From an uncultured Bacilli bacterium (GTDB lineage: Bacteria > Bacillota_I > Bacilli_A > RF39 > UBA660): a DNA stretch of 64,000 nucleotides. Both the position numbers and the translations under genes were made by a program. The stretch lies in NCBI GenBank assembly GCA_947629265.1, contig CANRCZ010000003.1, positions 8,359 through 72,358 on the forward strand, given 5' to 3'. The notes under the pieces were generated by a model. It was not told the origin of the DNA. It worked only from the letters and a program-made list of their open reading frames with translations, and did no database searches. Positions 3,726 through 58,176 of the stretch are shown here, one piece after another. Numbering within the stretch: the first letter of the stretch is position 1; each line of letters opens with the position of its first letter.

Positions 3726-3986
3726 TTATAATATAATTGCTTTCTCTACTATTTCCACTAAACGATAGTGTTTTGTTCTAGATAGTGGTCTTGTTTCAGT
3801 AATACGTACTGTATCACCGATTTTAGCTTCATTTTTTTCATCATGAACAGCATATTTTTTTGAACTTTTTACACGTTTTCCATATAATGGGTCTTTTTTA
3901 TAAGTCTCTACTAATACAGTAATAGTTTTATCAGTTTTATCGCTGACTACTTTACCAACTAGTCCTTTTTTTACATTCTTTTCCAT
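3726..3986 (-). CDS. rpsQ: 30S ribosomal protein S17
   Basis: 86-aa ORF, S17-like; operon order. Confidence 0.9.
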
Positions 3987-14891: not shown

Positions 14892-15773
14892 TCACTCCTT
14901 TATGTTTAATACTTCTAAAATACGATTTAGATCAGCTACATTAGTAAATGATATGATTATTTTTTTATCTTTTATTTTTATTTTAGTATCTAATTTATCT
15001 CTTAACATATTTTCAACATAAGTATAATCGTTATTATCATTATGTTTAGGTTTGTTGATTTTGACTTTTTTTTCTAAGTTTTCATCGGAAGCGATATTTT
15101 CGATATCACGAACATTCATATTTTCATCGACGATTTTATTCGCTAATTCGATAATTTTATTATCATCTTCTAATTTACTTAATATTCTAGCATGTCCCAT
15201 CGTTATATCTTTACTGTTTACCATGTTTTGAACCTCTAATGGTAATCTTAATAAACCTAAGATATTAGTGATATGACTACGGCTTTTACCTACTTTTTTA
15301 GCTAATTCATCTTGGGTTAAATGTAGTTCATCTAACATTAATTTATAAGCTGAAGCTTCTTCGACAGCTGATAAGTTTTCTCTTTGTAAATTTTCAAGTA
15401 AAGCGATCTCCATCATCTGTTCATCGGAAAAATCTCTTATAATAGCTGGTATTTTAGTAAGTCCGGCTTTTTTAGCAGCGCGAAATCTTCTTTCACCAGC
15501 GATGATATAGTAACCTTTAATACTTTTTTTAATTAGGATTGGTTGAAAAACACCATGTTCTTTTATAGACTCGGTTAATTCATCCAAAGCTTCGTTATCA
15601 AAAGTTTTTCTAGGTTGATATGGATTTGGTCTTAATTCATCTAAGTCTATCTCAAATATTTCTTCGTTATTTATGTTATCGTAAATATTTTTTTCAAATG
15701 ACTCGATATCTAGGTTTTCGGTATTGAATAATTGTTCTAAACCTCGACCTAAAGCTCTTTTTTTATTCTCCAT
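14892..15773 (-). CDS. parB: Chromosome partitioning protein ParB/Spo0J
   Basis: 293-aa ORF with the ParB N-terminal box GERRFRAA and an HTH. Immediately downstream of parA, with overlapping ends. Confidence 0.9.
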   Translation of the reverse strand: MENKKRALGRGLEQLFNTENLDIESFEKNIYDNINNEEIFEIDLDELRPNPYQPRKTFDNEALDELTESIKEHGVFQPILIKKSIKGYYIIAGERRFRAAKKAGLTKIPAIIRDFSDEQMMEIALLENLQRENLSAVEEASAYKLMLDELHLTQDELAKKVGKSRSHITNILGLLRLPLEVQNMVNSKDITMGHARILSKLEDDNKIIELANKIVDENMNVRDIENIASDENLEKKVKINKPKHNDNNDYTYVENMLRDKLDTKIKIKDKKIIISFTNVADLNRILEVLNIKE

Positions 15774-16560
15774 TACGTTCGATCACTTCCTTAGCTAAGT
15801 TAAGATATGCTTCTGTTCCTCTACTTGTTGAATCGTATAGTATTATTGGTTTTCCATGACTTGGTGCTTCTGATAGTTTAACAAGTCTAGGTATTATTGT
15901 ATCGTATACTCTTTCTTTAAAGTAACTTTTTATTTCTTCTACTACCTCTAATCCTAAGTTTGTTCTAGCATCTAACATTGTAAGAAGAACGCCCTCGATA
16001 TCTAAGGTTGGATTTATGTCTTTTTGAGCTAGCATAATTGTACTTAATAGTTGCATTATTCCCTCTAGTGCAAAGAATTCACATTGTACAGGAATAATAA
16101 CTGAATCAGCAGCTGTTAAAGCGTTTATGGTAAGAATACCTAATGATGGTGGACAATCGATTATTATGTAATCGAATAGATCTTTCGCTGGTAGCAAGTG
16201 TTTTTTTAGTTGACCACCTGATTTAAATGATGGATCTAATTTTGATTTTTCAACTAATTCTGTATCGATACCAGCTAGGTTAATAGTAGCTGGTATAGCA
16301 TATAGATTTTTACTTTTAGTTTTGATTACTACGTCTGATAATTCAGCTCTATCATTTAACAAATCGTATACACTTAAATTATAATCACTTTTTGAAATAC
16401 CTACTCCTGTTGTTGAATTTCCTTGTGGATCTAGATCAACTAGTAGGACTTTCTTTTTTAGATATCCAAGTGATGCGGAAAGGTTAATACTGGTTGTTGT
16501 TTTACCTACGCCACCCTTTTGATTAACTAATGCTATAATTTTCCCCATATTCTTCACCAT
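15763..16560 (-). CDS. parA: Chromosome partitioning ATPase ParA/Soj
   Basis: 265-aa ORF with a deviant Walker A (KGGVGKTTTSINL). Confidence 0.9.
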   Translation of the reverse strand: MVKNMGKIIALVNQKGGVGKTTTSINLSASLGYLKKKVLLVDLDPQGNSTTGVGISKSDYNLSVYDLLNDRAELSDVVIKTKSKNLYAIPATINLAGIDTELVEKSKLDPSFKSGGQLKKHLLPAKDLFDYIIIDCPPSLGILTINALTAADSVIIPVQCEFFALEGIMQLLSTIMLAQKDINPTLDIEGVLLTMLDARTNLGLEVVEEIKSYFKERVYDTIIPRLVKLSEAPSHGKPIILYDSTSRGTEAYLNLAKEVIERNGE

Positions 16561-16671: not shown

Positions 16672-17559
16672 CTATAACTTTTCGATTTCTTCTATACTTA
16701 AGCCTGTGTTTCTAGATATAACGTCAAAAGGAATACCATCAGTTTTTAGATTTTTAGCGATTTCGTTGGCTTTTTTCAATTCTCCTTGATTTATTCCTTG
16801 TTCTAAGCCATCTTCTCGAGCTTCGATGATTAGAGTGTTTCTTTCCATTTCTTCACGACTATAATCTGTGTATAGTTCCACAATGTCTTTATCCCTACTC
16901 CTTTTCTCTATCTCTTCTACTAGTTTTCCTTTTGTTTCTTTTGACATTAGATCATCACCTATCGCTTCCTCTATTTCTTCTAAGCTTGTTGCAGTTAATA
17001 ATTTGCACAATCTCGCTTTCTTTTCTTCATCTTTAGTATAACACATTTTTATCCCTCTTACCATATCTACGGAGATTATTTCGATATTTTCACTTAATAT
17101 TTTTCCACTTTCGTTTCTTAAATAATATCTTGAACATATCTTTTCTTGTCCACAATCAAAATTATTTAAACCTATTTGAATGGTCTTATTAATCTGACTA
17201 TAGTTATTATCTCCTCTTTCTAATTGTCTAGAGTGTACATTACATAAGTATACTAAATTTCTCTCTTGTATTCCTCTAGAACTATTATTATTTAATTCGA
17301 TATTTATCATATCGCCATCGTAGTCTAACAATAAGTCTACTTGTTCTCTTCTTTCTTTTTTGTTATATAACTCCAATTCCCTAGTTTTGATTTTCAATCT
17401 TCCTGTTATTTTTTCTAGAGGAATATCTGTTATAATCGATATTAAACTTTCTAGTATGTCGACATTCTTTTCCCTATTTAAAATATCAGTAAATACGAAA
17501 TCAAATGTCATTGGCAGTAACTTTAATTCTTTTTTATTTATGGTATTAATATTTTTCAT
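16672..17559 (-). CDS. Rpn-family recombination-promoting nuclease / putative transposase (PD-(D/E)XK, YhgA-like)
   Basis: 295-aa ORF. Has the N-terminal conserved region of Rpn/transposase_31 proteins and a C-terminal repeat-like tail (EQGINQGELKK...). Confidence 0.7.
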   Translation of the reverse strand: MKNINTINKKELKLLPMTFDFVFTDILNREKNVDILESLISIITDIPLEKITGRLKIKTRELELYNKKERREQVDLLLDYDGDMINIELNNNSSRGIQERNLVYLCNVHSRQLERGDNNYSQINKTIQIGLNNFDCGQEKICSRYYLRNESGKILSENIEIISVDMVRGIKMCYTKDEEKKARLCKLLTATSLEEIEEAIGDDLMSKETKGKLVEEIEKRSRDKDIVELYTDYSREEMERNTLIIEAREDGLEQGINQGELKKANEIAKNLKTDGIPFDVISRNTGLSIEEIEKL

Positions 17560-30967: not shown

Positions 30968-31806
30968 TCTTCACCTCGATGATATATTTTATATATTTCA
31001 CTTTTTGATATTTTCCGCAATTTTGCAACCTCTTTAATAGCTTGTTTTGAATCATAACCTTGAGCTATAAATTCTTCAATATGTTCAGTAATTGACAAGT
31101 TGTCATAGTTTTTCTCTTTTATTTCACCATCCACGATTATTACTAATTCACCTTTAATGTCAACCATTTGTCCTTTGATTTCTGAAACGGTTCCGCGATA
31201 TATTTCTTCGTATTTCTTTGATATTTCCCGGGAAATTGATATTTTTCTATTTCCCAGAATTTCTAATATATCGTCTAAGGTTTCAATTATTCGATGGGGT
31301 GACTCATAAAAAATCATAGTGTATGGTAGATCACTTAATTTTTGTAATTCTTTTTGTTTTTTAGAATGTTTATTATTTAAAAAACCATAAAATAAAAATG
31401 GTTGTGAACTTAATCCTGATGTAATTAAAGCTGGTATCAAAGCGGTTGGTCCAGGTAAGGCTACAACATTGTAATTATTTTCGATCGCTATTTTGACTAG
31501 TTCATAACCGGGATCACTTATAATAGGAGTGCCTCTATCAGTTACAATACCGACATCAAAACCATTTTTTAAATAAGATAGCAGTTTATTATCGTTTTTA
31601 TGTTCATTGAAATTGTGACTAGATATTAGTTTTTTATTTATATCTAAGGATTTTAATAATAAACCAGTTACTCTTGTATCTTCGGAAAAAATAACCTCGA
31701 CTTTTTTTAATGTATTGATAGCCCGCAAAGTTATATCTTCCATATTGCCGATGGGGGTTGGTATTAGATAAACTGTTGGACTATTATCATAACTTTTTTG
31801 TGACAT
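30964..31806 (-). CDS. rsmI: 16S rRNA (cytidine1402-2'-O)-methyltransferase (tetrapyrrole-methylase fold)
   Basis: 280-aa ORF, YabC/RsmI-like (LYLIPTPIGN, SDPG). Confidence 0.85.
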   Translation of the reverse strand: MSQKSYDNSPTVYLIPTPIGNMEDITLRAINTLKKVEVIFSEDTRVTGLLLKSLDINKKLISSHNFNEHKNDNKLLSYLKNGFDVGIVTDRGTPIISDPGYELVKIAIENNYNVVALPGPTALIPALITSGLSSQPFLFYGFLNNKHSKKQKELQKLSDLPYTMIFYESPHRIIETLDDILEILGNRKISISREISKKYEEIYRGTVSEIKGQMVDIKGELVIIVDGEIKEKNYDNLSITEHIEEFIAQGYDSKQAIKEVAKLRKISKSEIYKIYHRGEE

Positions 31807-35299: not shown

Positions 35300-36949
35300 C
35301 TAGCTATATTCGATTATTTCATCGAATAGTTCTTCTATTTCTGTATTTTTTTTCATATCTAATGTAGGTTCTTCAATATATTCGTATTTTTTTAATTTAT
35401 TATTAAATTCTTGTTTTATGTTATTCCAGTTTTCTTGGTCAACAGCGACGGTTTTATATTGTTTATCAAATTGCTCTGACAACATTTTATCTATTTCGTA
35501 CATTTTTTCATTAAAGTTATCACTGTCGCGACTATTACCAAAGACGAAGATTATATATTCATCGCTTGCAGCTTTTAATTCACCATCGATGATCATTGCT
35601 GCTAGTTCACTATAATCTGGATTGATTATCAACAATCTAATTTCTTCTATCTTGCTTTTCAAGGATAAAAGTTGCTTTTTGTCAAATTTACACAAACAAT
35701 TATTTATCCTTATATTTACTAATTTTTCAAGATTTTTATCTTTTATTTTTTCAGTTTTTGGTTCTATCTTTTTATTTTGTTTTTCTACTTTTTTATTTTC
35801 TTCTTGTTGTGGTTTATTATTTATTTGTTCTTGTTTTATTACCTGTATATTTTGGATATTTTCTTGTTTTGGTTGTTTATAATTGATTATTTCGATTAAA
35901 GTCATTTCAAAGATAATTTTTACATTGCTGGCTTTTTTCATATTGTATATTGCTTCATTAAATATTTTTATATATCGTATAATTTTTTCGTTATCAAATT
36001 TTTTACTTAATTCATCGTATATACTTTTTTCTTCACTATCTTCGACAAAGAAATTTTCAACATTAATATTTAATAAAACATTTTTTAAAAATAAAATAAT
36101 TTCTTCGGTTAATTTTATAAAATTTTTACCATCATTATCATACTGTTCGATCAATTTGAAAGTATATTCATAATCGTTATCTACTATTGCTGTAATGAAT
36201 TCTTTTAGTTTAGCTTGCGCGATCGTTCCATTTATTTCATGGACATCATCGATTGTTATTTTATCATCGGCATACGCTACTACTTGATCTAAAATGCTTA
36301 AAGCATCACGCATACATCCATCAGATAGTCTTGAAATTTCTTTTAAAACATTATCTTCTGCATCGATATTTTCTTGTTTAATAATGTATTTAAGTCGATC
36401 TATCATATTATTTAAACCGATTTTTTTGAAATCGAAGCGTTGACACCTCGATAAAATGGTAATAGGTATTTTATGAGGTTCTGTGGTAGCTAAAATAAAG
36501 ACTGCGTGGTTTGGTGGTTCTTCTAATGTTTTTAGTAAGGCATTGAAAGCACCAGTTGTTAACATATGAACCTCATCTATTATATATACTTTATATTTTC
36601 CAACTGATGGTACTAAATTAACTTTGTTTCTTAGTTCTCTTATTTCATCGACACCATTGTTGGAAGCTGCATCGATTTCGATTATATCAATTGTTTGTTT
36701 ATTATTTATTTGTGTACAACTAACACATTTATTACAAGGTATATATTCTTTAAGGTTTTCGCAGTTTATTGTCTTAGCTAATATCTTTGCAACGCTTGTT
36801 TTACCAGTTCCTCTAGGACCAGTAAATAGATATGCATGACTTAGTTTATTTTTTAATATTGCGTTTTTTAATGTTTTTATAATAACGTCTTGTCCTACTA
36901 CCTCATCAAAGTTATTAGGTCGATATTTTCTATACAACGTTTGATACAA
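35300..36949 (-). CDS. dnaX: DNA polymerase III subunits gamma/tau
   Basis: 549-aa ORF with an AAA+ Walker A (GPRGTGKTSVAKILAK) and a zinc module (CNKCVSC). Confidence 0.92.
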   Translation of the reverse strand: MYQTLYRKYRPNNFDEVVGQDVIIKTLKNAILKNKLSHAYLFTGPRGTGKTSVAKILAKTINCENLKEYIPCNKCVSCTQINNKQTIDIIEIDAASNNGVDEIRELRNKVNLVPSVGKYKVYIIDEVHMLTTGAFNALLKTLEEPPNHAVFILATTEPHKIPITILSRCQRFDFKKIGLNNMIDRLKYIIKQENIDAEDNVLKEISRLSDGCMRDALSILDQVVAYADDKITIDDVHEINGTIAQAKLKEFITAIVDNDYEYTFKLIEQYDNDGKNFIKLTEEIILFLKNVLLNINVENFFVEDSEEKSIYDELSKKFDNEKIIRYIKIFNEAIYNMKKASNVKIIFEMTLIEIINYKQPKQENIQNIQVIKQEQINNKPQQEENKKVEKQNKKIEPKTEKIKDKNLEKLVNIRINNCLCKFDKKQLLSLKSKIEEIRLLIINPDYSELAAMIIDGELKAASDEYIIFVFGNSRDSDNFNEKMYEIDKMLSEQFDKQYKTVAVDQENWNNIKQEFNNKLKKYEYIEEPTLDMKKNTEIEELFDEIIEYS

Positions 36950-37020
36950 TTTATCACCTCATTTACCTATATAGTATAACATTTTTAAGCTTATTTTTAA
37001 AGAAAAGAATTTATTATAAA

Positions 37021-37543
37021 AAATATGTTTCACGTGAAACATTGGTCATTCGTTTTATTATTTTTATTACGTTGATTCTATGTTTCACGTGAAACATTAG
37101 CTATTCGTTTTATTATTCTTACTACGTTATGTTTATGTTTCAAGTGAAACATTAGTTATTCGTTTTATTATTTTTATTACGTTGATTTTATGTTTCACGT
37201 GAAACATTGATTATTCATTTAATTATTTTTATTACGTTGATTTTATGTTTCACGTGAAACATTGATTATTCATTTAATTATTTTTATTACGTTGATTTTA
37301 TGTTTCACGTGAAACATTAGCTATTTACTTTATTATTCTTACTACGTTAAGTTTATGTTTCACGTGAAACATTGGTTATTCATTTTACTATTTTTATTAC
37401 GTTAGTTTTATGTTTCACGTGAAACATTAGCTATTTGTTTTATTATTTTTATTACGTTAGTTTTATGTTTCACGTGAAACATTAGTTATTCGTTTTATTA
37501 TTCTTACTACGTTAATTCAATGTTTCACGTGAAACATTGATCA
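37021..37543. repeat. parS: Tandem array of 10 copies of a ~55-bp unit. Each unit contains the palindromic parS consensus TGTTTCACGTGAAACA. Copies start at 37026, 37081, 37137 (CAAGTG variant), 37191, 37246, 37301, 37356, 37411, 37466 and 37521.
   Basis: Read directly from the sequence. The 16-bp palindrome is identical to the canonical ParB-binding parS. The inter-palindrome segments are near-identical to each other, so they are not unique spacers. Confidence 0.85.
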
Positions 37544-37972
37544 TCATCTTAATGATTTAAAAAAATCTTTCAATAATCCTGCTGTTTCTTCTGATAGAAT
37601 ATCACCAACAATATTTATTTTTTTTATATCACTATTGTGTATTGCACCAAAATTTTCATTTATACTACCATATACTATATTATTAATTCTTGATTGCATT
37701 ATAGCCCCTAAACACATACTACATGGTTCAATAGTTGTATATAACGTACAATTATCAAGATGCCATGTTTTTAATTTCTTACACGCTTTTTCAATTGCTA
37801 TAATTTCAGCATGCTTAGTAGCTATATTTTTATATTCTTTTTGATTGTACCCCCTAGCTATTACCTTATCGTTATATACGATAATAGCCCCTATAGGTAC
37901 ATCACCTTTTTTTAAAGCTTTCTTAGCTTCTTTTATAGCTAATGCCATATATTTTTCATGCATTTTTATCAC
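37544..37972 (-). CDS. tadA: tRNA-specific adenosine deaminase
   Basis: 142-aa ORF with CDA zinc motifs HAEIIAI and PCSMC. Confidence 0.9.
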   Translation of the reverse strand: MIKMHEKYMALAIKEAKKALKKGDVPIGAIIVYNDKVIARGYNQKEYKNIATKHAEIIAIEKACKKLKTWHLDNCTLYTTIEPCSMCLGAIMQSRINNIVYGSINENFGAIHNSDIKKINIVGDILSEETAGLLKDFFKSLR

Positions 37973-37979
37973 CTACAAA

Positions 37980-38060
37980 AAAGCACACACATTAAGTGAT
38001 CCTTAAGGCTGCTGTTTTCCAACTCTGACCTGGTTCGAATATTAATGTTGTGCTATCTAT
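37980..38060 (-). ncRNA. ffs: Small bacterial SRP RNA (4.5S/scRNA), about 75-85 nt
   Basis: The minus strand reads ...GAACCAGGUCAGAGUUGGAAAACAGCAGCC..., the conserved domain-IV motif. A terminal helix forms between AGCACAACAUUAA and UUAAUGUGUGUGCU. Position adjacent to tadA/dnaX matches Bacillus. Confidence 0.6.
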
Positions 38061-38090
38061 AATATATAATAATTAAAAAAAATAATCAAT

Positions 38091-38106
38091 GTTTCACGTG
38101 AAACAT
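38091..38106. promoter_or_regulatory. parS: Isolated 11th perfect parS site (TGTTTCACGTGAAACA). It overlaps the -35 (TTGATT) of the putative ffs promoter on the minus strand.
   Basis: Exact palindrome in the sequence. On the minus strand downstream: ttgatt-N17-tatatt-N6-AGCACA. Confidence 0.75.
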
Positions 38107-38123
38107 TGACCACTTTTTTTAAA

Positions 38124-40574
38124 TTAATTTTCTTCGATTTCTTCTTCATCTACTTTTTCAATTTTTTCAATAATAGCTACAGAACTTACTTTTTGTTCAT
38201 CTTTCAAATTAATTAATTTAACACCTTGAGCTACTCTACCAGTTACTGATATTTGCTCAATTGGTAATCTTATTATAATTCCACTATTAGTAATAATCAT
38301 TAGATCCTCTTCACCAGTTGTTGTTTTAAACGCTACTATATTTCCGTTTTTAGATGTTACATTTAGAGCTTTAACACCTTTGCTTCCTCTATGAGTCATT
38401 CTATATTCTTCTAACTTAGTACGTTTTCCATATCCATTTTCAGTTACTACTAAAATTTCATCATCTGGTTTAGCAATTTCACAACCTACACATATACCAT
38501 CACCAACATCGATTCCTTTAACACCAGTAGCTGTACGTCCAGTTATTCTTATTTCTTTTTCTTCATATCTAATCATACGACCATTGCTAGATGCCATTAA
38601 TATCTCATCATTACCACTAGTCTTTTTAACAGATATCAATTGATCATCATCTCTTAAGGTTATAGCTATCTTACCATTAGATCTTATATTATCGAACTCT
38701 TTTATGTTGGTTCTCTTGATTAAACCATTTTGTGTACAAAATACAATATATTTATTTTGTTCTTCTTTTTCAACCTTTAGTATAACTTTAACCTCTTCAT
38801 CTTTCTCAATTGGTAATAAATTGATAATTGGTAAGCCTTTAGATTGACGATTAAATAATGGTACCTCGTATCCTTTGATACGGTAAACTTTACCTCTATT
38901 TGTAAAGATTAATAAGTAATCATGAGTTGTCATCGAAATTAAACTTTGAGCGAAATCTTCTTCGTTAGTTGTCATTCCTTTAATTCCGACTCCACCACGG
39001 TTTTGACTTTTATATGTTTCACTTGGTGTACGTTTTATATATCCTTTGTTAGTAAGTGTTATAACGATATCTTCGACTGGTATTAATGATTCATCTTCAA
39101 TATAATCAATAGCTGTCATATCGATCTTAGTTCTTCTTTCATCAGAATATTTATTTTTAATTTCTGTAAGTTCATTTTTAATTATTTCAAGAATCTTTTC
39201 TTCACTAGCTAAGATAGCTGTTAATTCTTCGATAGTTGCTAATAATTCTTTTAATTCTTCTTCAATTTTATCTCTTTCTAAGCCTGTTAAACGACGTAAT
39301 TTCATTTCAAGAATAGCTTTAGCTTGAGTTTCTGTCAAGTTAAATCTTGAAATTAATTGTTCAGTTGCTTCTAAATCGTTTTTAGCAGCTTTAAGTAAAG
39401 CGATTACAGCATCGATATTATCTAAGGCTATTTTTAACCCCTCTAAGATATGTGCTCTTGCTCGAGCTTTTTCTAATTCAAATTTAGTTCTTCTAATAAT
39501 GACTAATTTTTGATGATCGACATACTTTTCTAGCATTTCTTTTAATGATAATATTCTTGGTTCATTATCGACTAAAGCTAGGGTATTTACACCATATGAC
39601 GTTTGTAGTGAGGTATGTTTATATAAATTATTTAATACGACATTGGCATTTGCATCTCTTTTTAAATCGATTATAATTTTTATACCACTACGATCTGATG
39701 ATAAATCTCTAATATCGGTAATACCATCGATAATTTTTTCTTTAACTAAATCAGCGATTCTTTCGATTAAAGAAGCCTTATTTACCATATAAGGTATTTC
39801 GGACACAATTATTTGTTGCTTATTATTTGATAAGGTTTCTATCTCAGCTTTACTGCGGATAGTGATAATTCCTTTACCTATTTCATAAGCTTTCTTAATT
39901 GAACTATTACCTAAAATTAAACCACCGGTTGGAAAGTCAGGACCTTTAATATATTCCATTAATCCTAATGTATCAATATCAGGATTATCGATTAAAGCGA
40001 TCGTTCCATCGATAACCTCACCTAAATTATGTGGTGGAATATTAGTTGCCATACCAACAGCGATACCAGTTGAACCATTAACTAAAAGGTTAGGAAATCT
40101 TGATGGTAAAACGGTTGGTTCTTTTTCCGTTTCATCAAAGTTAGGAATAAAATCGATCGTATCTTTATTAATATCTCTTACTAATTCGATACTTAGTTTT
40201 GACATACGAGCTTCGGTATAACGCATAGCGGCAGCGCCATCACCATCGATTGAACCAAAGTTACCATGACCATCGACTAAGGTATAACGATATGAGAAAT
40301 CTTGAGCCATTCTAACTAAAGCCTCATAGATACTTGAGTCACCATGAGGGTGATATTTACCCATGACGTCTCCGACGATACGAGCTGATTTACGATAAGG
40401 AGCACTAGCATTCGTACCAACTAATTCACTTAAACCATAGATAATTCTTCTTTGAACAGGTTTTAAACCATCTCTTACATCAGGTAAGGCACGTGATGCT
40501 ATAACACTCATAGCATAATCTATAAAAGAATTTTCAATTTCTTTGGAAAATTTTATTGTTTCTAATCTATCCAT
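38124..40574 (-). CDS. gyrA: DNA gyrase subunit A
   Basis: 816-aa ORF with the active-site region AAMRYTEAR and C-terminal beta-pinwheel repeats. Sits downstream of gyrB. Confidence 0.95.
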
Positions 40575-40583
40575 AATACCCTC

Positions 40584-43638
<3,055 letters not shown>

Positions 43639-43795: not shown

Positions 43796-44323
43796 TTAGA
43801 TGATTATTTTTTCTTGATACATCTCATTTTTTCGTGTATTTATTATCTCTTTTAATAGTTTAGCTTTTTTTAATTGATTGTTAACTGTATAGTAAGATTT
43901 ATCAACTTGGATAGTAGAACCATTGGTAAAACATATTTGTGTATTTTTACCACATTTATTGATTTGGCTTAAATTCGCTAAATTAATCCATATACACCGA
44001 TCATCTCTAGTTGATGATAATGGAAAAAATATTATGTTGTTACTTTCTTCTATAATAATCGGTAATTTAGAGTTTAATCCAATTATATTTTTTGTTCCTG
44101 TAATCCGTCCAATATAAGAACTACCATAATAGTTACAATTATAATCTAGGATATTGATAATTTTATCTTCGATATGGTAACTATGTTTAGTTTCGATTAT
44201 ATGAACCATATTTCTATTTTTTCCAATCAATGCTAAGGTATCTTTAGTTATATTGTATTTAGACATACCATAACCCCCTCCCCAGCTAATATTAAATAAT
44301 ATTTTATTGTCGATAATTATCAA
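43796..44323 (-). CDS. comK: ComK-family competence transcription factor homologue
   Basis: 175-aa ORF with blocks resembling B. subtilis ComK: YYGSSYIGRITGT (cf. FFGSSYAGRKAGT), IFFPLSSTRDDRCIWI (cf. FLFPTLSSTRPQCGWI), FTNGSTIQVDKSY (cf. FSNGKTMELPISY). The comparison is from memory of the ComK sequence. Confidence 0.55.
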   Translation of the reverse strand: MIIIDNKILFNISWGGGYGMSKYNITKDTLALIGKNRNMVHIIETKHSYHIEDKIINILDYNCNYYGSSYIGRITGTKNIIGLNSKLPIIIEESNNIIFFPLSSTRDDRCIWINLANLSQINKCGKNTQICFTNGSTIQVDKSYYTVNNQLKKAKLLKEIINTRKNEMYQEKIII

Positions 44324-44346: not shown

Positions 44347-45468
44347 TTATATTGTTCTAATTGGAACGACTAATTGAATAAGTTTATCATCGTCGACATT
44401 TTTAATAATAATTGGTCTAATATCACCACTGAATAATAATTCGATATTTTCACATTCTAAGGCTTTTACTGCTTCCATCATAAATTTAGAAGAGAATGAT
44501 ATGTTTATATTTTCATCATTATTTTTAGTAGCATCGATCTGTTCTTCGACATTTCCGATTTCAGGAATATTTGATGATATGACGATTTCATTTTCTTTGG
44601 TTACTAAGTTAATAGTATTTTTTTCTTCTTCGTTAGTAAATAATGAAGCTCGATCTAGTGCATTATAAAATTCATTTAAGTTAAGTTGAACTTTTAAGAA
44701 ATAATCAGTTGGTATTAATGCGGATAAGTTTGGAAAATTACCATTGATCAATCTAGACATAAAGATAATGTTATCAAATTTAAAGATTATTTTATTGCTG
44801 AAGATATGTAATTCGATATTATCTTCGTTATCACTTAATAGACGCATTAATTCGTTTAAGTTTCTAGTTGGAATGATGATATTGATTTCTTCTTTTAATG
44901 ACTCTGGTAATTCGACGATTTTTTTACTAGCGCGGTAAGAGTCAGTTGCACTTATTTCCATAATATTATTTTCACATTTAAAATTGATACCCATTAAAAC
45001 TGGTTTAGATTCTTGATTTGATGAAGCAAAGGCTGTTTGTCTAATGATATTTTTAAATGTTTGTTTATTTAATATGATAGGATCTTTATTTTCTTTTAAA
45101 TCTAAGATAGGAAATTCTGATGGAATATTACAATTTAAGTTTGTTGATGATTGTTTAGTTTCAATAATGATCTTATTATCGATTACCTCTTCAATATGGA
45201 TGATATCGTTTGGTAATTTTTTTACTATTTCATATATATATCTACCTGATACTAATATTTCACCATATGAATTTATTTTAGCGATATCTTTTTTATCGAT
45301 AAAAGTTTTAATAGCGATATCGTTATCGGTACTTAATAGATATAATCCCTCTTCGGTTAATTCAAATTTTATACAGTTTAAAACTGGTATCATATTTTTT
45401 GTAGATATTCCTTTAATTACATAGTTTAAATGTTCAATTAAAATACTTTGTTTGATTTCTAAATTCAT
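44347..45468 (-). CDS. dnaN: DNA polymerase III beta sliding clamp
   Basis: 373-aa ORF immediately downstream of dnaA, with a three-domain clamp-like sequence. Confidence 0.9.
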   Translation of the reverse strand: MNLEIKQSILIEHLNYVIKGISTKNMIPVLNCIKFELTEEGLYLLSTDNDIAIKTFIDKKDIAKINSYGEILVSGRYIYEIVKKLPNDIIHIEEVIDNKIIIETKQSSTNLNCNIPSEFPILDLKENKDPIILNKQTFKNIIRQTAFASSNQESKPVLMGINFKCENNIMEISATDSYRASKKIVELPESLKEEINIIIPTRNLNELMRLLSDNEDNIELHIFSNKIIFKFDNIIFMSRLINGNFPNLSALIPTDYFLKVQLNLNEFYNALDRASLFTNEEEKNTINLVTKENEIVISSNIPEIGNVEEQIDATKNNDENINISFSSKFMMEAVKALECENIELLFSGDIRPIIIKNVDDDKLIQLVVPIRTI

Positions 45469-45607: not shown

Positions 45608-46957
45608 TCAGTTAATGGTCTTAATCAATTTTTTTATTTCAATTTCTAGGTTAGGATCTTTCGCTATCTGTTTTTTAATCTTTTCAACAGCATGCATAAC
45701 GGTCGTATGGGTTTTTCCACCAAATTCGATACCTATTTTAGCGAGTGGTTGATCGAATTCTAGTCTACATATGTACATAGCTATTTGTCTAGGGGTATTG
45801 ATATTCGCTAATCTTTTAGTACCTCTTATTTCTTCAAGGGTTATATTATAATGTTCGGCTACAACTTGTTGGACTTGTTGAATTTTATTTTTAGAATGAA
45901 GATTGTCTTTAAATTCTTCTTTTAAAGCTTCCATCGCGATATCTAAAGTAATAATACCGGAGTTCATCATCGTTGCATAAGCGACAACTCTCGTGATCGT
46001 ACCCTCTAGTTTTCTTATGTCACTAGTACAGTTACTAGCGATATATTCTTTAACATTTTGTGGAAAATTACCGTTTATCATGTGACCCGCTACTTTATTG
46101 TCGATAATATCCATCCTTAAATTAAATTCTGGTGGTAGAATATCGATGCTTAAGCCCCATGTAAACCTAGTTCTAAGTCTTTCTTCTAGTAATTTTAAGT
46201 CTTCTGGCGATCTATCTGATGATATTATTATTTGTTTATTATTGTCGTGTAGGACATTAAAGGTATTGAAAAATTCTTGTTGTGTCTGATTAGCGCTACC
46301 TAAGTACTGAATATCATCGATAATAAGAACGTCAATATCTCGGTATTTCTTTTTGAAAAATTCGACATTATCAAAGTTATTATTAGCTTTTTTACGACTA
46401 ATACCGACAAAATCATCAACAAATTGTTCACAAGTAACATATAGAACTTTTTTCTTGCTGTTATTTACAATATAGTTACCAATAGCATGCATCAGGTGGG
46501 TTTTACCAAGTCCGCTCGAACTATACATAAATAAAGGATTATACATTGTACCTGGGTGTTCAGCGACTGCTAAAGCTGTAAGTTTCGCTAATCTGTTGCT
46601 CTCTCCTACGATGAAATTATCGAATGTATATTTAGAATTTAAGTTCGATTCAAATGCTAAAGTTGATGGAACACCGATATCATCAGTATCAATTTCAATA
46701 TTTTTTTCGATTTCTTCTGGTAATAGATATTCAAATTTAAAGTTAGAACCCGCGATTTCATTAAATATTTCTACTATTAATGAGTTATAGTTTTCTTTTA
46801 AATTCTTTTTAGTGACATGATAAGGTACGATGACCTTGGCGGTATCACCACTTAAATCATATAGTTCGGTATTAGAAAACCATGTTTCAAATGCCATCGG
46901 AGATAATTCTGGTTTGATTTTTTCTAAAAATGCATTCCATAGTTTTATCTTATCCAC
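45608..46957 (-). CDS. dnaA: Chromosomal replication initiator DnaA (GTG start)
   Basis: 449-aa ORF with an AAA+ domain (GLGKTHLMHAIGN) and a C-terminal DnaA-box-binding HTH. Confidence 0.95.
   Translation of the reverse strand: MDKIKLWNAFLEKIKPELSPMAFETWFSNTELYDLSGDTAKVIVPYHVTKKNLKENYNSLIVEIFNEIAGSNFKFEYLLPEEIEKNIEIDTDDIGVPSTLAFESNLNSKYTFDNFIVGESNRLAKLTALAVAEHPGTMYNPLFMYSSSGLGKTHLMHAIGNYIVNNSKKKVLYVTCEQFVDDFVGISRKKANNNFDNVEFFKKKYRDIDVLIIDDIQYLGSANQTQQEFFNTFNVLHDNNKQIIISSDRSPEDLKLLEERLRTRFTWGLSIDILPPEFNLRMDIIDNKVAGHMINGNFPQNVKEYIASNCTSDIRKLEGTITRVVAYATMMNSGIITLDIAMEALKEEFKDNLHSKNKIQQVQQVVAEHYNITLEEIRGTKRLANINTPRQIAMYICRLEFDQPLAKIGIEFGGKTHTTVMHAVEKIKKQIAKDPNLEIEIKKLIKTIN
46949..46957 (+). promoter_or_regulatory. 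Perfect consensus DnaA box TTATCCACA overlapping the dnaA start codon
   Basis: The sequence reads cttatccacaacc; the last three bases (CAC) are the reverse complement of the dnaA GTG start. Confidence 0.5.
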
Positions 46958-47440
46958 AACCAGTCACCTCCATATAAAGTTAAATCTACTTACATTGTAC
47001 TACCTTTTTAAGTAAAAAAAAAGAAAAAATGTCGAAAAAAGTAATAAAAAATGAAATAAACAGACTTTTGAACATTAAATTTATCATATTTTATCAAAGT
47101 TTAGAAAGTTTTGAACAATTTTGTCGACAATTTTAATTAAAATTAGCCTAATGTTGAAAGTTTTATACACTAAAATGTTCAAAACTATGTATATTTATTA
47201 AAATACTTGATGATTTGAATGTTTAAAACTATGTTAAAAGATAAAAATTAGAATAATTTTGATAATCTGATATGTTCAATACTAATTATTTATCCAAATT
47301 TTAGACATTAAATAATTAAAAAATTAGAAATAATACTAAAAAAGCTATAATAAACATAAACTTTTAATTGACAAAAGCAGATTTAATCTATATAATTGAA
47401 AGAGCAATGCAAAAATTATAGATAATAGGAGGTGTATGCT
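46958..47440. other. oriC: Candidate oriC / divergent promoter region between dnaA and rpmH. Very AT-rich, with repeated AATGTT(C/T)AAAACTATG and TTTTGAACA motifs and a TTATCCAAA box.
   Basis: dnaA-rpmH divergent arrangement. Motifs at ~47061, 47108, 47174, 47218, 47270 and 47291. A related copy sits at ~45521 in the dnaA-dnaN spacer. Confidence 0.45.
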
Positions 47441-47563
47441 ATGAAAAGAACATTCCAACCTAATAATAGAAAAAGAAGTAAAAAACAAGGTTTTTTTTCT
47501 CGTATGAAATCTGGAATAATAAATCGTAGAAGAAAAAAAGGAAGAAAAGTATTATCTAGATAA
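47441..47563 (+). CDS. rpmH: 50S ribosomal protein L34 (40 aa)
   Basis: ATG preceded by AGGAGG. Translation [40 protein letters not shown]. Upstream of rnpA. Confidence 0.85.
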
Positions 47564-47610
47564 ATCAACCACTTTTTAGTGGCTTTTTCTTTAGAAAGAC
47601 GAGTGATGTA

Positions 47611-47934
47611 ATGAAAAAAATCAACATTTTAAAATCAAATCTTGATTTTAATCGAATAATTAGAACTTATAAACCAATCAAAAGTAAAAATTTTGTAATA
47701 TATTTTGAATATAATACTAATGACACTTATCATTTTGGTATATCAGTATCTAAAAAAATCGGTAATGCTGTTACTAGAAATAAATATAAAAGAAGAATAA
47801 GATCCATAATTTCTAAAAAAAGCTATAAAAATAATTTCAATTGTATTATAATATTAAAGAAGAGTGTTTTAGAATGTAGTTATAAAGAATTAGAAGAGGA
47901 ATTATTAGATAATATGAAAAAGGTGATTAAATGA
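47611..47934 (+). CDS. rnpA: Ribonuclease P protein component
   Basis: 107-aa basic ORF between rpmH and yidC. Confidence 0.85.
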   Translation: MKKINILKSNLDFNRIIRTYKPIKSKNFVIYFEYNTNDTYHFGISVSKKIGNAVTRNKYKRRIRSIISKKSYKNNFNCIIILKKSVLECSYKELEEELLDNMKKVIK

Positions 47935-54714: not shown

Positions 54715-55593
54715 ATGATTATGAAAATGTTTAATTATTTGAAAAAATATTACAAGTTAGTTATATCATTTGTTTTAGGTGTAATGATAACTACTATGGT
54801 AGGTTATGGAGTTGGTTATGCTGTTGATAATATACCTAGTGATGGTGTTAGTTATGTAAAGAATAATAAAACTATTACTGTTAAACAAGCTTTAGATGAG
54901 TTAATAAATACGTCACTAACTAGAATTGATGATTTGGAAGCAAAGGCTAAAATTTATAAGTATGCTTATTTATATGATGCCGTTAATGTTGGAGATTATG
55001 TAGATTATGATGCTGGTAATTGGACAGCTGACGTTCCAATACCAAGTGTAGTAGGAGAATTTGGTGGATATAAAGCTAATACAAGTAAAAATGCTAGTGT
55101 GGTATGTTGGGAGCCAAGAGGTACAACAGACTTGAAAGGCTGGCGTGTACTTAAAAAAGTAAATAACCAAGTCTACCTAGTCCACGCTGGCCAACCTGAG
55201 TGTCATTATCACAAAAATGGATATAATGATACAAGTATCGAAGCTTTAAATAAACGAGCAAATGAATATAAGAATGAATATGCGGTGTCCGCTCATGCTA
55301 TGAATTATCAAGAAGCATATGATATTGATAAAACTGAATTAGATGTTGCTACCAATAATGATTTACGAAAAACTGGAGCATTTTATTATCTGGCAACACC
55401 TTACCAAACTGAAGATGATAAAAATTGGTTGTATGGTGTTAGGCAAGATGGTGCTATAACTTATATAGGTTATGCAACTGGTCTAGCGACTGGCTTTCGT
55501 CCTGTTGTAGTTTTAAAAGCAGGTATTTTAACGACAGGAAAAGGAACAGATGAATTTGGACAACCTGCATGGAAACTAGTTGAAATGAAATAA
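54715..55593 (+). CDS. Secreted/surface protein, paralogue 2 (intact ATG start, no poly-G)
   Basis: 292-aa ORF sharing the family motifs. RBS gagggag. A TGgTATAAT extended -10 sits at ~54680. Confidence 0.8.
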   Translation: MIMKMFNYLKKYYKLVISFVLGVMITTMVGYGVGYAVDNIPSDGVSYVKNNKTITVKQALDELINTSLTRIDDLEAKAKIYKYAYLYDAVNVGDYVDYDAGNWTADVPIPSVVGEFGGYKANTSKNASVVCWEPRGTTDLKGWRVLKKVNNQVYLVHAGQPECHYHKNGYNDTSIEALNKRANEYKNEYAVSAHAMNYQEAYDIDKTELDVATNNDLRKTGAFYYLATPYQTEDDKNWLYGVRQDGAITYIGYATGLATGFRPVVVLKAGILTTGKGTDEFGQPAWKLVEMK

Positions 55594-55709
55594 TGTAGTT
55601 GAGCTGATAATTCAACTTTTTTTCTTTCACCAAAATAAAACAGTATTGAAAATATAATATAAATTTAGTATAATTGATATGTAAAATAAAATAGGAGTAG
55701 ACAAGAAAA

Positions 55710-56514
55710 ATGAAAGAGAAAATAAAGCTTGGGGGGGGGTTATCTACTAATAATTTTGGTACTATTAGTAGTAACTAATGGTATTACGTATGGAGCTAGT
55801 CAGTTAACTAGCGATGGTGTGAGCTACCAGAAAAATGGTGAAACTATAACAGTGACGAAAGCGCTAGACGATTTAATCAATACGTCACTAACTAAAATTG
55901 ATGAATTAGAGGCAAAAGCTAAAATTTATAGATATGCTGAATTGGTAGACGTTGTTGAAATTGGAGATTATGTAAATTATGATGCTGGTAAATGGTCTAC
56001 GTCGAAAACAAAGCCAGAAAGTCAGGGGCAGTTCGGTGGATATAATGCTAATACTAGCAAAAATGCCAGTGTTGCATGTTACGAAGAAACAGCTCCAAAA
56101 TATCAAGGATGGAGAGTTTTGTCAAAAGATACAAATTCTAGAACTGTAACTATCATTCATGCTGGTCAACCCGAATGTTATTATCATGCTAGTGGATATA
56201 GCGATGCAAGTGTAGAACTTTTAAATAAAGAAGCAGAACAATATATGAATACATATGCAAAGTCAGCACGTTCAATTATTGGAGATGACATAAATTCTTT
56301 GGGTGGTAATGATTTAAGAAATATCGGATCAGAATATTGGTTGGCGTCTAAGAATGGTCAATACCATTTATATATGGTTCGTGCATCAGGTGGAGAAGCA
56401 TGGTCTCATACTGCTGCAATGGGTTTCCGTCCAGTAATTGTCTTAAAATCTGAAACATTAACCAATGGTAAAATAAAAGATCAATTTAATAATGATGCTT
56501 GGAAACTAATTTAA
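55710..56514 (+). CDS. Secreted/surface protein, paralogue 3. Putatively phase-variable and currently out of frame: ATG...poly-G(9) in frame 1, the rest of the ORF in frame 2.
   Basis: ATG at 55710 with RBS taggag. MKEKIKLGGG then runs into a stop. The 261-aa ORF 55729-56514 is in the +1 frame; G8 instead of G9 would fuse the two. Confidence 0.7.
55731..55739 (+). repeat. Homopolymeric G(9) tract in the 5' coding region; candidate slipped-strand phase-variation switch
   Basis: Counted directly: gctt-GGGGGGGGG-ttatc. Confidence 0.9.
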
Positions 56515-56610: not shown

Positions 56611-58176
56611 ATGTATAAGAATAAGAAAGGGTGTACTGGTATGAATATAGAAAGAGAAGTACAAATTTTAAATATAAATGATATTTTGCCTAATAGATTT
56701 CAACCAAGAATTACCTTTGATGAAAAAGCTATCATGGAATTAGCGGAATCAATCAAAACTCATGGTGTAATTCAACCAATTGTCGTAAGAAAAGTAGCAG
56801 ATAAATATGAAATTATCGCTGGTGAAAGAAGATATAAAGCTAGTATCATCGCAGGTAAAACAACCATTCCAGCTATTGTAACTGATTTAGATGATAAAGA
56901 TAGTGCCGAGGTAGCGTTAATTGAAAACGTTCAAAGACAAGATTTAACACCTATCGAAGAAGCTATATCTTATAAAAAAATCTTAGATATGGGATATCTA
57001 AATCAATCAGAACTAGCAACAAAATTAGGCAAAACACAATCAACAATCGCTAATAAACTACGTCTTTTAAATTTAACAGACGAGGTTCAAGAAGCATTAT
57101 TAAAAGAAAAAATATCTGAAAGACACGCCCGTTCTTTATTAAAATTGGATAAATCTAAACAAAATGAAATGCTTAATCGTATTATAACTGAACGAATGAC
57201 AGTTAGAAAAACCGATGAAGAAATTGCAAAAATAACTAACAACGTCGAAATGTTAGATTTCGGCAAAAAGGAGGATGTGTCTATGAATAATCAAATAAAT
57301 AGTTCTAATATTCCAACTTCACCAATAATTGAACCAAATCCTATGAATAACGTGCCAAACGTACCAAATGTTTCTCAAGACTTAAATGTTGATAATATGG
57401 TACCAGAACCAAATATCGAACCATTCAATATCGATACTTTATCTACTAATGATAATCTTCAAACAGTACCAACATCAAATAGCTATTTAGATGAAATACC
57501 AACAACAGAAACTATCAATCCAGGATTTATGGATATTAATAAAATCGAAGCTGAAGCTACTAATATCAATCCTACTATGGGTAATAGCGGTTCATTCATT
57601 AATAATGAACCAAACCAAAACCTAGATAGCATAATTAATCAACCAACATATACAACACCAATTGATCAACCAAATGATAATGGTCAACCAGCAGGTGGAA
57701 GATTTTTCTCTAATCAAATAGAAGAACCTAATCAACCTCAAGATAATAATTTAGATAATATGTTTGATAGTAACAACATATTTACTCAAGATATGAATTT
57801 TAATCAACCACAATTTGATCAACCATATCAAAATCAAACCAATAACGCTAACAACAATGCTGGCTTTAACCCAGCTTTAGCAAGTTTTAACTTAGGTAGT
57901 CAACCACAATTTGATGCTCCACAACCAGAACCAGCACCACAAAATATAAATACAAGTGTTGTTGAACTTGGTGGAACAGGATTTATGAACGAAGAACCAA
58001 TCTTACAACCATTAATGAACAATAACGAACCAGTTGTTAGACATGATATGAAAGAAGCTATATCAATAATTAGAAGCTGTTCAAAACAAATTGAAAACTT
58101 AGGATTTAAGTTAGACGTTGAAGAGATAGATTTTGAAAATTTCTATCAAGCAACATTCAAAATCGAAAAACCATAA
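56611..58176 (+). CDS. ParB/Noc-family paralogue: ParB N-domain, HTH, then a ~300-aa N/Q/P-rich low-complexity region and a short C-terminal domain. The likely start is the ATG at 56641 after RBS agaaaggg.
   Basis: 521-aa ORF. GERRYKAS arginine patch, HTH (QSELATKLGKTQSTIANKL), then ...NNQINSSNIPTSPIIEPNPMNNVPNVPNVSQ...QPQFDQPYQNQTNNANNNAGFNPA... Confidence 0.75.
   Translation: MYKNKKGCTGMNIEREVQILNINDILPNRFQPRITFDEKAIMELAESIKTHGVIQPIVVRKVADKYEIIAGERRYKASIIAGKTTIPAIVTDLDDKDSAEVALIENVQRQDLTPIEEAISYKKILDMGYLNQSELATKLGKTQSTIANKLRLLNLTDEVQEALLKEKISERHARSLLKLDKSKQNEMLNRIITERMTVRKTDEEIAKITNNVEMLDFGKKEDVSMNNQINSSNIPTSPIIEPNPMNNVPNVPNVSQDLNVDNMVPEPNIEPFNIDTLSTNDNLQTVPTSNSYLDEIPTTETINPGFMDINKIEAEATNINPTMGNSGSFINNEPNQNLDSIINQPTYTTPIDQPNDNGQPAGGRFFSNQIEEPNQPQDNNLDNMFDSNNIFTQDMNFNQPQFDQPYQNQTNNANNNAGFNPALASFNLGSQPQFDAPQPEPAPQNINTSVVELGGTGFMNEEPILQPLMNNNEPVVRHDMKEAISIIRSCSKQIENLGFKLDVEEIDFENFYQATFKIEKP

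Follow-up and report, generated by a model that had tools for sequence, protein, structure and literature searches.

The sopC centromere of the F plasmid is built of 12 tandem 43-bp repeats, each of which carries a 16-bp inverted repeat that is bound by SopB. Why chromosomes keep several parS sites when a single one suffices is still debated, and work on the loading, sliding and condensation of ParB relies on synthetic arrays of multiple parS sites. Most species possess one to four putative parS sites, and some possess 20 or more (PMC10786196). Corynebacterium glutamicum has ten of them distributed across 35 kb and manages with one alone, a redundancy that has been read as robustness (PMC7083940); a "two consecutive parS" element has been described in Streptomyces (PMC7229854). 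Synthetic parS arrays show an enhanced ParB signal, and the force of ParB-mediated condensation in vitro grows with the number of sites, such that 7, 13 and 26 copies condense and 1, 2 and 4 do not (PMC8299390). The literature that we searched for tandem parS arrays on chromosomes turned up only plasmid-borne and synthetic cases (the survey of Livny et al. 2007 may tabulate some), and the words "tandem" and "clustered" do not occur in the main review of chromosomal ParB (PMC7022226). Here we describe ten parS sites arranged in tandem between tadA and dnaX in a 64-kb stretch of DNA from an uncultured member of the Bacilli (contig CANRCZ010000003.1; the whole stretch is hereafter called the window), and we argue that this array is likely to be the main chromosomal centromere of the organism.

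Results

Sites, sequence and spacing of the array

A motif search and Tandem Repeats Finder both delineate the array in the tadA-dnaX spacer, where ten 16-bp parS palindromes follow each other head to tail at an exact 55-bp period (37026-37536, no strand assigned). Each unit consists of a 16-bp core and a 39-bp linker, so that the array is a ten-fold 55-bp direct repeat with a single inverted-repeat site per unit; it measures 511 bp in total and has a GC content of 24%. Tandem Repeats Finder reports it as a single array (37024-37538, period 55, 9.4 copies, 88% matches), and its conserved block extends to 18-19 bp of palindrome plus flank, ATGTTTCACGTGAAACAT(T). Numbered from the dnaX side, the sites, again without strand, occupy 37026-37041 (parS 1, the closest to dnaX), 37081-37096 (parS 2), 37136-37151 (parS 3), 37191-37206 (parS 4), 37246-37261 (parS 5), 37301-37316 (parS 6), 37356-37371 (parS 7), 37411-37426 (parS 8), 37466-37481 (parS 9) and 37521-37536 (parS 10, which starts 7 bp past the tadA stop codon). 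Nine of the ten are perfect copies of TGTTTCACGTGAAACA, and parS 3 is TGTTTCAAGTGAAACA, a CAAGTG variant with a C8A change. The original prediction had described exactly this, namely ten copies of the canonical ParB/Spo0J-binding 16-mer at 55 bp, nine of them perfect and one CAAGTG, and this much is borne out; what it had overlooked is an eleventh perfect site (parS 11, 38090-38105, no strand assigned) in the interval between gyrA and the gene for the signal recognition particle (SRP) RNA, 18 bp past the gyrA stop codon.

Eleven parS sites thus fit in 1.1 kb, ten of them perfect and one with a single mismatch to the 16-bp palindrome TGTTNCACGTGAAACA of B. subtilis-type chromosomes. Outside these ten plus one sites no further parS with up to three mismatches was found anywhere in the window, parB and its surroundings included. 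Shuffling the window with dinucleotide composition preserved yielded no chance matches at up to two mismatches; when up to three were allowed, the mean was 0.45.

The linkers had been described as near-identical, which does not hold, as their pairwise identity ranges from 72 to 100% with a mean of 83%, and the longest run that is invariant among them measures 6 nt. Over the ten units, 38 of 351 linker positions are changed as opposed to one of 160 core positions (Fisher p = 7e-6). With linkers about 17% diverged and cores kept, selection seems to act on every site, and such per-site conservation in the presence of linker drift is not predicted by a young neutral amplification. The proposal that the array could be a recently amplified element is largely refuted by the same figures. 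Only units 4 and 5 look recent: they are identical, which is true of no other pair in the array, and would mark the latest duplication. Together with the longest exact repeat inside the array, which spans 97 bp, this identical pair shows that duplication is ongoing.

Predicted ParB and ParA partners

A cognate ParB and its ParA partner are encoded within the window. The parB gene (14892-15773, minus strand) specifies a 293-aa protein of the Spo0J type with the Pfam domains ParB_N and HTH_ParB, an N-terminal LGRGL motif for ParA contact and a GERRFRA motif for CTP binding, and its closest solved structure is that of B. subtilis Spo0J (6sdk, E = 9e-64). ParA (soj, 15763-16560, minus strand; Pfam AAA_31/CbiA) is encoded immediately upstream. 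Four residues set the specificity of ParB-family proteins for parS versus the Noc-binding site, NBS (PMC7383237). In this ParB they are R173, I179, R184 and G201, in the context GKSR(173)...MG(201)HAR, which is of the parS type at both specificity-switching positions, and on this basis ParB is the predicted binder of the array. Pfam places the operon 20.5 kb from the array, in agreement with the roughly 21 kb given originally. A gene of the PD-(D/E)XK (Rpn-like) transposase family (16672-17559, minus strand) adjoins parA.

A second ParB paralogue had also been pointed out at 56611. The family assignment of this 521-aa protein (56611-58176, plus strand; Pfam and structure matches) stands, but it is not of the parS type. 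Noc proteins are marked by Q173, K179 and/or K184, and R201 at the DNA interface; here the specificity residues are Q173, K179, N184 and R201 (GKTQ(173)STIANK(179)...SER(201)HAR), and its best structure matches are to Noc (7ng0/7nfu, E = 1e-59, versus 1e-45 for Spo0J). Its gene lies downstream of rsmG, near the usual position of noc, with two Pfam-less open reading frames (ORFs) of 292 and 261 aa in between (54715-56514, plus strand). The window holds one perfect NBS, ATTTCCCGGGAAAT, at 31223; one or more NBS matches with up to two mismatches appeared in 22 of 100 shuffles, so that this site lends little weight to the assignment. The 521-aa paralogue is thus Noc-like, and by its residues it should bind NBS and is not expected to bind the parS sites of the array. 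Its architecture is unusual for Noc, in that ParB_N and HTH regions of about 210 aa are followed by a stretch of about 250 aa of low complexity rich in N, Q and P and by a short C-terminal domain, with no obvious N-terminal amphipathic helix of the B. subtilis Noc kind. In one relative (P0020; L126, about 3885-3900) a near-perfect NBS-like palindrome, ATTTCCTGGGAAAT, sits directly beside a parS site in the tadA-dnaX spacer. That parAB is found away from its usual place after rsmG/noc suggests that the operon has been relocated.

The same locus in relatives

The DnaX protein of the window is known from one 73.6-kb NCBI contig, and its nearest homologues are about 60% identical. We compared the dnaX loci of nine relatives, all from the same clade of uncultured Bacilli, whose DnaX proteins are 55-60% identical to that of the window and in which the gene order gyrB-gyrA-ffs-tadA-dnaX-ybaB-recR is conserved. 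All nine carry parS at the two spacers that hold it in the window, with the reservation that the gyrA-side spacer is not assembled in P0006/P0007 and P0008. The numbers vary from one to five sites after gyrA and from one to at least eight between tadA and dnaX. Specifically, P0082 (L138, L139) has one site at each spacer and P0048 (L129, L130) two at each; P0066 (L131) has one after gyrA and three between tadA and dnaX; P0023 (L137) and P0004 (L132-L134) each have three and two, the two of P0004 being 36 bp apart; and P0020 (L126-L128) has five and two. The tadA-dnaX spacer of P0006/P0007 (L121, L122, L135, L136) holds at least eight sites at a 39-bp period, and that of P0008 (L123-L125) at least three complete sites at a 37-bp period, with a further one truncated where the contig stops. 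For comparison, the window has one and ten, the latter at 55 bp. Comparing this spacer across related genomes had been proposed as a check, and copy number does indeed vary.

What is kept in these nine relatives is parS itself, and not the intergenic DNA that flanks it, which cannot be aligned; the linkers of the relatives' arrays, too, are unrelated to that of the window. Variant sites in the relatives (TGTTCCACGTGAAACA, TGTTTCACGTGGAACA and AGTTTCACGTGGAACA) are changed at positions 1, 5 and 12, which are the positions where natural parS sites are degenerate (PMC5450999). No linker motif is common to these lineages, the invariant TACGTT of the window linker being missing from the relatives' linkers, and a second binding protein is therefore unsupported. 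The periods of 55, 39, 37 and 36 bp seen in the window and its relatives correspond to 5.2, 3.7, 3.5 and 3.4 helical turns. Since spacing is thus unphased, independent loading sites are favoured over a wrapped, cooperative nucleoprotein complex.

In a tree of DnaX, P0006/P0007 and P0008 group together (75% identity) and the window falls on a separate branch, which implies at least two separate origins of large arrays within this clade. All seven contigs of P0006/P0007 and P0008 (L121-L125, L135, L136) stop inside the array, 116-386 bp upstream of dnaX. Contig ends of this kind are typical of a repeat that interrupts short-read assembly, and because of them array sizes in public assemblies are underestimated. 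Two further loci, L231 and L216, likewise end inside tandem parS arrays. An apparently different order of units in L136 as compared with L121 and L135 was rejected, as the units next to dnaX agree (G-A-G-A variants) and the contigs merely break at different points. A second assembly of the source species was found neither by exact look-up of DnaX in the contig index nor by scanning metagenomes for three perfect sites with the exact 55-bp period.

Clusters of parS in public genomes

To place the array among other bacteria, one genome per GTDB species was scanned for pairs of perfect parS sites separated by 20-50 bp, which recovered at least 120 loci from many phyla; clusters among the genome matches listed comprise 87 doublets, 30 triplets and one each of five, seven and eight sites. 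A metagenome scan for three perfect sites likewise gave at least 120 loci, and in those listed the cluster sizes are three (88 loci), four (11), five (12), six (4), seven (2), eight (2) and ten (1). With its ten sites the array of the window ties for the largest among 346 loci sampled. Neighbouring parA and gyrA genes were identified by probing with the proteins of the window: among the matches listed, parA lies within 600 bp of the cluster at 55 of 120 genome loci and 65 of 120 metagenome loci, typically in the rsmG-parA interval, and gyrA lies beside the cluster at two of 120 genome loci. Tight pairs and triplets of parS are therefore common and usually sit just upstream of parA, and arrays of seven to ten sites are rare but recurrent. 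An array at dnaX, 20.5 kb from parAB, is a peculiarity of the window's clade. The contrast drawn originally with known chromosomes, in which a handful of sites are spread over tens of kilobases, accordingly applies to model organisms only and not in general, as clusters occur in many phyla as well as in the window's own clade. Collinsella species, for instance, have a conserved parS triplet with a 39-bp period.

Among putative viral contigs of IMG/VR, 106 have pairs of the host-type consensus parS, and one of these has eight sites. The latter (L347, 6137-6460; the IMG/VR set comprises L260-L365) carries eight host-type parS sites at a 38-bp period, flanked by ORFs without Pfam matches. Mobile elements may thus exploit the ParABS system of their host for their own inheritance.

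Genomic setting and origin

The genes around the array, as assigned by Pfam and Rfam, all lie on the minus strand. Starting from the origin side they are dnaA (45608-46957), dnaN (44347-45468), a ComK-like gene (43796-44323; PF06338, E = 6e-35), recF (42502-43638), gyrB (40584-42515), gyrA (38124-40574), ffs for the small SRP RNA (37968-38064; Rfam) and tadA for the tRNA adenosine deaminase (37544-37972), then, directly downstream of the array, dnaX for the gamma/tau subunit of DNA polymerase III (35300-36949), followed by ybaB and recR. The start codon of tadA is probably the ATG at 37963, as the first codons of the ORF overlap ffs. By consensus match, a candidate dnaX promoter (TTTAAA, a 17-nt spacer and a TG-extended TATACT) is found between the array and the dnaX start, at 36973-37001 on the minus strand. 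The gene for the ComK-family protein occupies the dnaN-recF interval, where B. subtilis and closely related species have a small S4-like gene, yaaA.

The genes yidC, mnmE, mnmG and rsmG are oriented the opposite way, starting at 47931, and a spacer of 974 bp (46958-47930) separates dnaA from yidC. The cumulative GC skew has its minimum at 44-46 kb, which together with this spacer marks the dnaA region as the probable oriC. DnaA boxes are not in excess in the window (28 counted versus 22 expected; the dnaA start has one perfect box), hence the placement of oriC rests on gene order and GC skew. The array, bounded by dnaX and tadA as originally predicted, lies 8.1 kb from the 3' end of dnaA and 9.4 kb from its start, close to the distance of about 10 kb first proposed, and next to a dnaA-dnaN-recF-gyrBA segment; it is in this sense as origin-proximal as a chromosomal parS should be.

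parS 11 is centred in a palindrome with 25-nt arms (38073-38122) bordered by T and A runs, predicted to be an intrinsic terminator in both directions downstream of gyrA. Among the parS sites of the relatives, too, several are terminator-like (for example L126, 3250-3285), and some parS sites may thus double as terminators.

Discussion

Taken together, we consider it likely, judging from sequence, that the array represents the main chromosomal centromere of this organism, a multi-site platform for nucleation and loading of ParB that is iterated in the manner of plasmid centromeres and was expanded by tandem duplication. In the model we propose, dimers of the Spo0J-type ParB would bind each 16-bp palindrome, as suggested by the identity of the sites with canonical parS and by the specificity residues of ParB. 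ParB would then bind CTP, close into a clamp and slide to the flanking DNA, steps that are established for the family. Ten tandem entry sites could be expected to raise both the loading flux and the local concentration of ParB, and would thereby give rise to a robust partition complex for ParA-driven segregation of the origin and probably also for SMC loading. The array would have grown, through tandem duplication, from an ancestral parS directly behind the tadA stop codon, where the relatives have one to three sites or arrays that expanded independently, and parS 10, which holds the place of the post-tadA parS of the relatives, is probably its seed. The evidence that we count for this model comprises canonical sites, a cognate ParB together with ParA, a position near the origin, conservation of each site and of the locus across the clade, and the occurrence of similar tandem arrays beside parAB in unrelated lineages. 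The earlier notion of a "super-loader" or kinetochore-like hub is plausible, in that it agrees by analogy with the rise of in vitro force with parS number.

Several points weigh against the centromere model. First, a single parS suffices in every system tested, so that ten copies need not bring a benefit. One repeat of F sopC is enough for segregation, and one parS is reportedly enough in P. aeruginosa. C. glutamicum, too, segregates with one (PMC7083940). Second, ParB bound at neighbouring sites could block clamps in the interior of the array, in which case flux need not scale with copy number. Third, other parS sites may exist beyond the 64 kb that were searched. Finally, parS 1 is only 24 bp from the candidate dnaX promoter, which renders regulatory and centromeric roles inseparable.

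According to the main rival explanation, the sites do bind ParB, one or two of them being enough, and the surplus copies are unselected products of slippage or unequal recombination at a palindromic repeat, perhaps promoted by ParB itself. The identical units 4 and 5 and the 97-bp exact repeat speak for ongoing duplication, copy number varies from one to ten or more among relatives with the same gene order, and a single parS is sufficient in C. glutamicum (PMC7083940) and, going by the title of the respective paper, in P. aeruginosa. However, every older, diverged unit retains an intact core, which would not be expected of neutral copies, and large arrays originated at least twice in the clade and repeatedly in other phyla, as would happen under selection or if mutation were strongly biased towards them. 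We therefore regard redundant expansion as a possibility to be taken seriously, even if a rather doubtful one.

It is also conceivable, but unlikely, that the array is an operator, from which bound or spreading ParB tunes the dnaX promoter, with parS 11 tuning ffs in the same way, so that expression of the clamp loader would be coupled to the ParB/CTP status of the cell. Plasmid ParB and KorB proteins offer an analogy, as they repress through centromeres. The position of the sites would fit as well: the candidate -35 hexamer of dnaX has the nearest parS 24 bp upstream of it, parS 11 abuts a candidate ffs promoter, in all nine relatives 58-115 bp separate the last parS from the dnaX start codon downstream, and the arrays of other lineages are located in the parAB promoter region. 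Nevertheless, repression needs just one operator, any intergenic site of a compact genome will be near some promoter, and sites are also found right after the stop codons of gyrA and tadA, which argues for intergenic rather than promoter-specific placement. Precedents from chromosomes point both ways, as the intergenic sites parS3 and parS4 of P. aeruginosa repress adjacent genes, whereas Spo0J of B. subtilis leaves the expression of parS-adjacent genes unchanged (PMC7022226).

That the array or its copy number merely reflects mis-assembly of a short repeat is very improbable. The contig does belong to a metagenome-assembled genome (MAG), the DnaX of the window is known from that one NCBI contig, contigs of relatives break inside their arrays, and neither the DnaX look-up nor the 55-bp metagenome scan produced an independent assembly of the same species. 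On the other hand, nine of the ten units are distinct and must hence be present in the reads; with 97 bp as the longest exact repeat, an error is possible only in how often the identical pair, units 4 and 5, is repeated, and independent assemblies of relatives carry arrays at the same locus.

The weakest proposal, that the repeats act as RNA hairpins (terminators or stabilisers) or form a CRISPR- or REP-like array unrelated to ParB, can be dismissed with near confidence, for although the hairpin that holds parS 11 past gyrA is terminator-like and has T-runs, some sites of relatives resemble intrinsic terminators and the array RNA folds strongly (z = -12), this fold is a trivial consequence of the palindromes and carries no information, the hairpins of the sense (minus) strand precede A-rich sequence and not U-runs, terminators are called at parS 11 and nowhere inside the array, and the 16-mer is exactly the universal parS, kept where its flanks are not. 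An Rfam scan at gathering and permissive thresholds found SRP RNA alone; the sub-threshold matches that it gave within the array, to rox2 and to miRNA families of plants, were rejected as palindrome artefacts. A CRISPR array, which would have repeats of about 28-37 bp, unique spacers and usually cas genes, was rejected on account of repeats of 16-19 bp, "spacers" that are 72-100% identical and flanking genes (gyrA, ffs, tadA, dnaX) with housekeeping functions, no cas-specific search having been made, and an intrinsic-terminator or REP-like repeat because none of the ten array units is called terminator-like, parS 11 alone being so.

Returning to the centromere model, the array is an uncommon variant of the well-known ParABS system and is not unique. 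Short-read assemblies break at such arrays, immediately in front of dnaX or parA, so that MAGs systematically contain them cut short or not at all, and tandem parS arrays can be seen as an under-reported feature of bacterial chromosomes. The natural ten-copy array and its relatives with one to at least eight sites also provide a ready series in which the effects of site number and spacing on loading flux, size of the partition complex, SMC recruitment and expression of neighbouring genes could be tested. More tentatively, dense tandem parS arrays might constitute an overlooked and convergently evolved class of "regional" chromosomal centromeres whose copy number is under selection, an idea that is at present more doubtful than probable. 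If it were true, arrays would have arisen repeatedly, upstream of parA in Clostridia and others, and at gyrA-tadA-dnaX here after parAB had left rsmG. Array size would set the loading flux of ParB and the size of the partition complex, and palindrome-bound ParB might promote the very slippage by which arrays expand. Breaks in short-read assemblies would have kept dense arrays out of view, and mobile elements would carry arrays of host-type parS as well.

Comparison with known systems

How, then, does this locus compare with centromeres that have been described? With the parS of B. subtilis-type chromosomes it shares the identical 16-bp sequence, a position near the origin, a ParB of the Spo0J type that carries a CTP motif and a ParA of the Soj type. 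The difference lies in the arrangement, since the sites of model organisms are kilobases apart, whereas here 11 fall within 1.1 kb, ten of them at 55-bp intervals, and none in or next to parB.

In architecture the array is closer to the iterated sopC of F than to such dispersed sites, and the resemblance to plasmid centromeres that had been noted at the outset is in this respect well founded. Both consist of direct repeats of about 40-55 bp with one palindromic site for a ParB-family protein in each, and in both the copies are far more numerous than the single repeat that is needed. In contrast, sopC sits on a plasmid, immediately downstream of sopAB, and consists of SopB-specific sequence, and its period of 43 bp is near helically phased (4.1 turns, as compared with 5.2 turns for the 55 bp of the window). 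The array of the window is chromosomal, uses the universal parS and is 20.5 kb away from parAB. A plasmid-type cassette is not what we find, given that the array lies amid tadA, dnaX, gyrA and ffs on a chromosome that bears dnaA. We also rejected an iteron centromere of type Ib or II (parC/ParR, or the heptads of pSM19035), as the repeats are 16-bp palindromes 39 bp apart with unphased periods of 55, 39, 37 and 36 bp. No gene for an iteron-type ribbon-helix-helix (RHH) protein flanks the array, where tadA and dnaX are housekeeping genes, an RHH-specific search not having been made.

C. glutamicum, with ten sites in 35 kb, and Streptomyces, with more than 20, resemble the window in having multiple redundant sites near oriC, and the Streptomyces doublets were recovered in our genome scan. 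Their clusters, however, span kilobases without a regular tandem repeat, and the density of sites in the window is about 100 times higher.

Comparable natural arrays come from other uncultured bacteria (L083, L173, L161, L103, L240, L093), in which consensus parS sites likewise form regular tandem arrays of five to eight copies with AT-rich linkers. Those arrays lie upstream of parA, as in L083 from Lachnospiraceae (eight copies at 46 bp), L173 (eight at 37 bp) and L161 (eight at about 61 bp), whereas that of the window occupies the tadA-dnaX spacer, parAB having moved elsewhere. With the synthetic arrays of seven to 39 parS copies (PMC8299390), finally, the locus has in common that many B. 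subtilis-type sites are concentrated in a short piece of DNA, and the arrays of the window and its relatives are the natural counterparts of these constructs.

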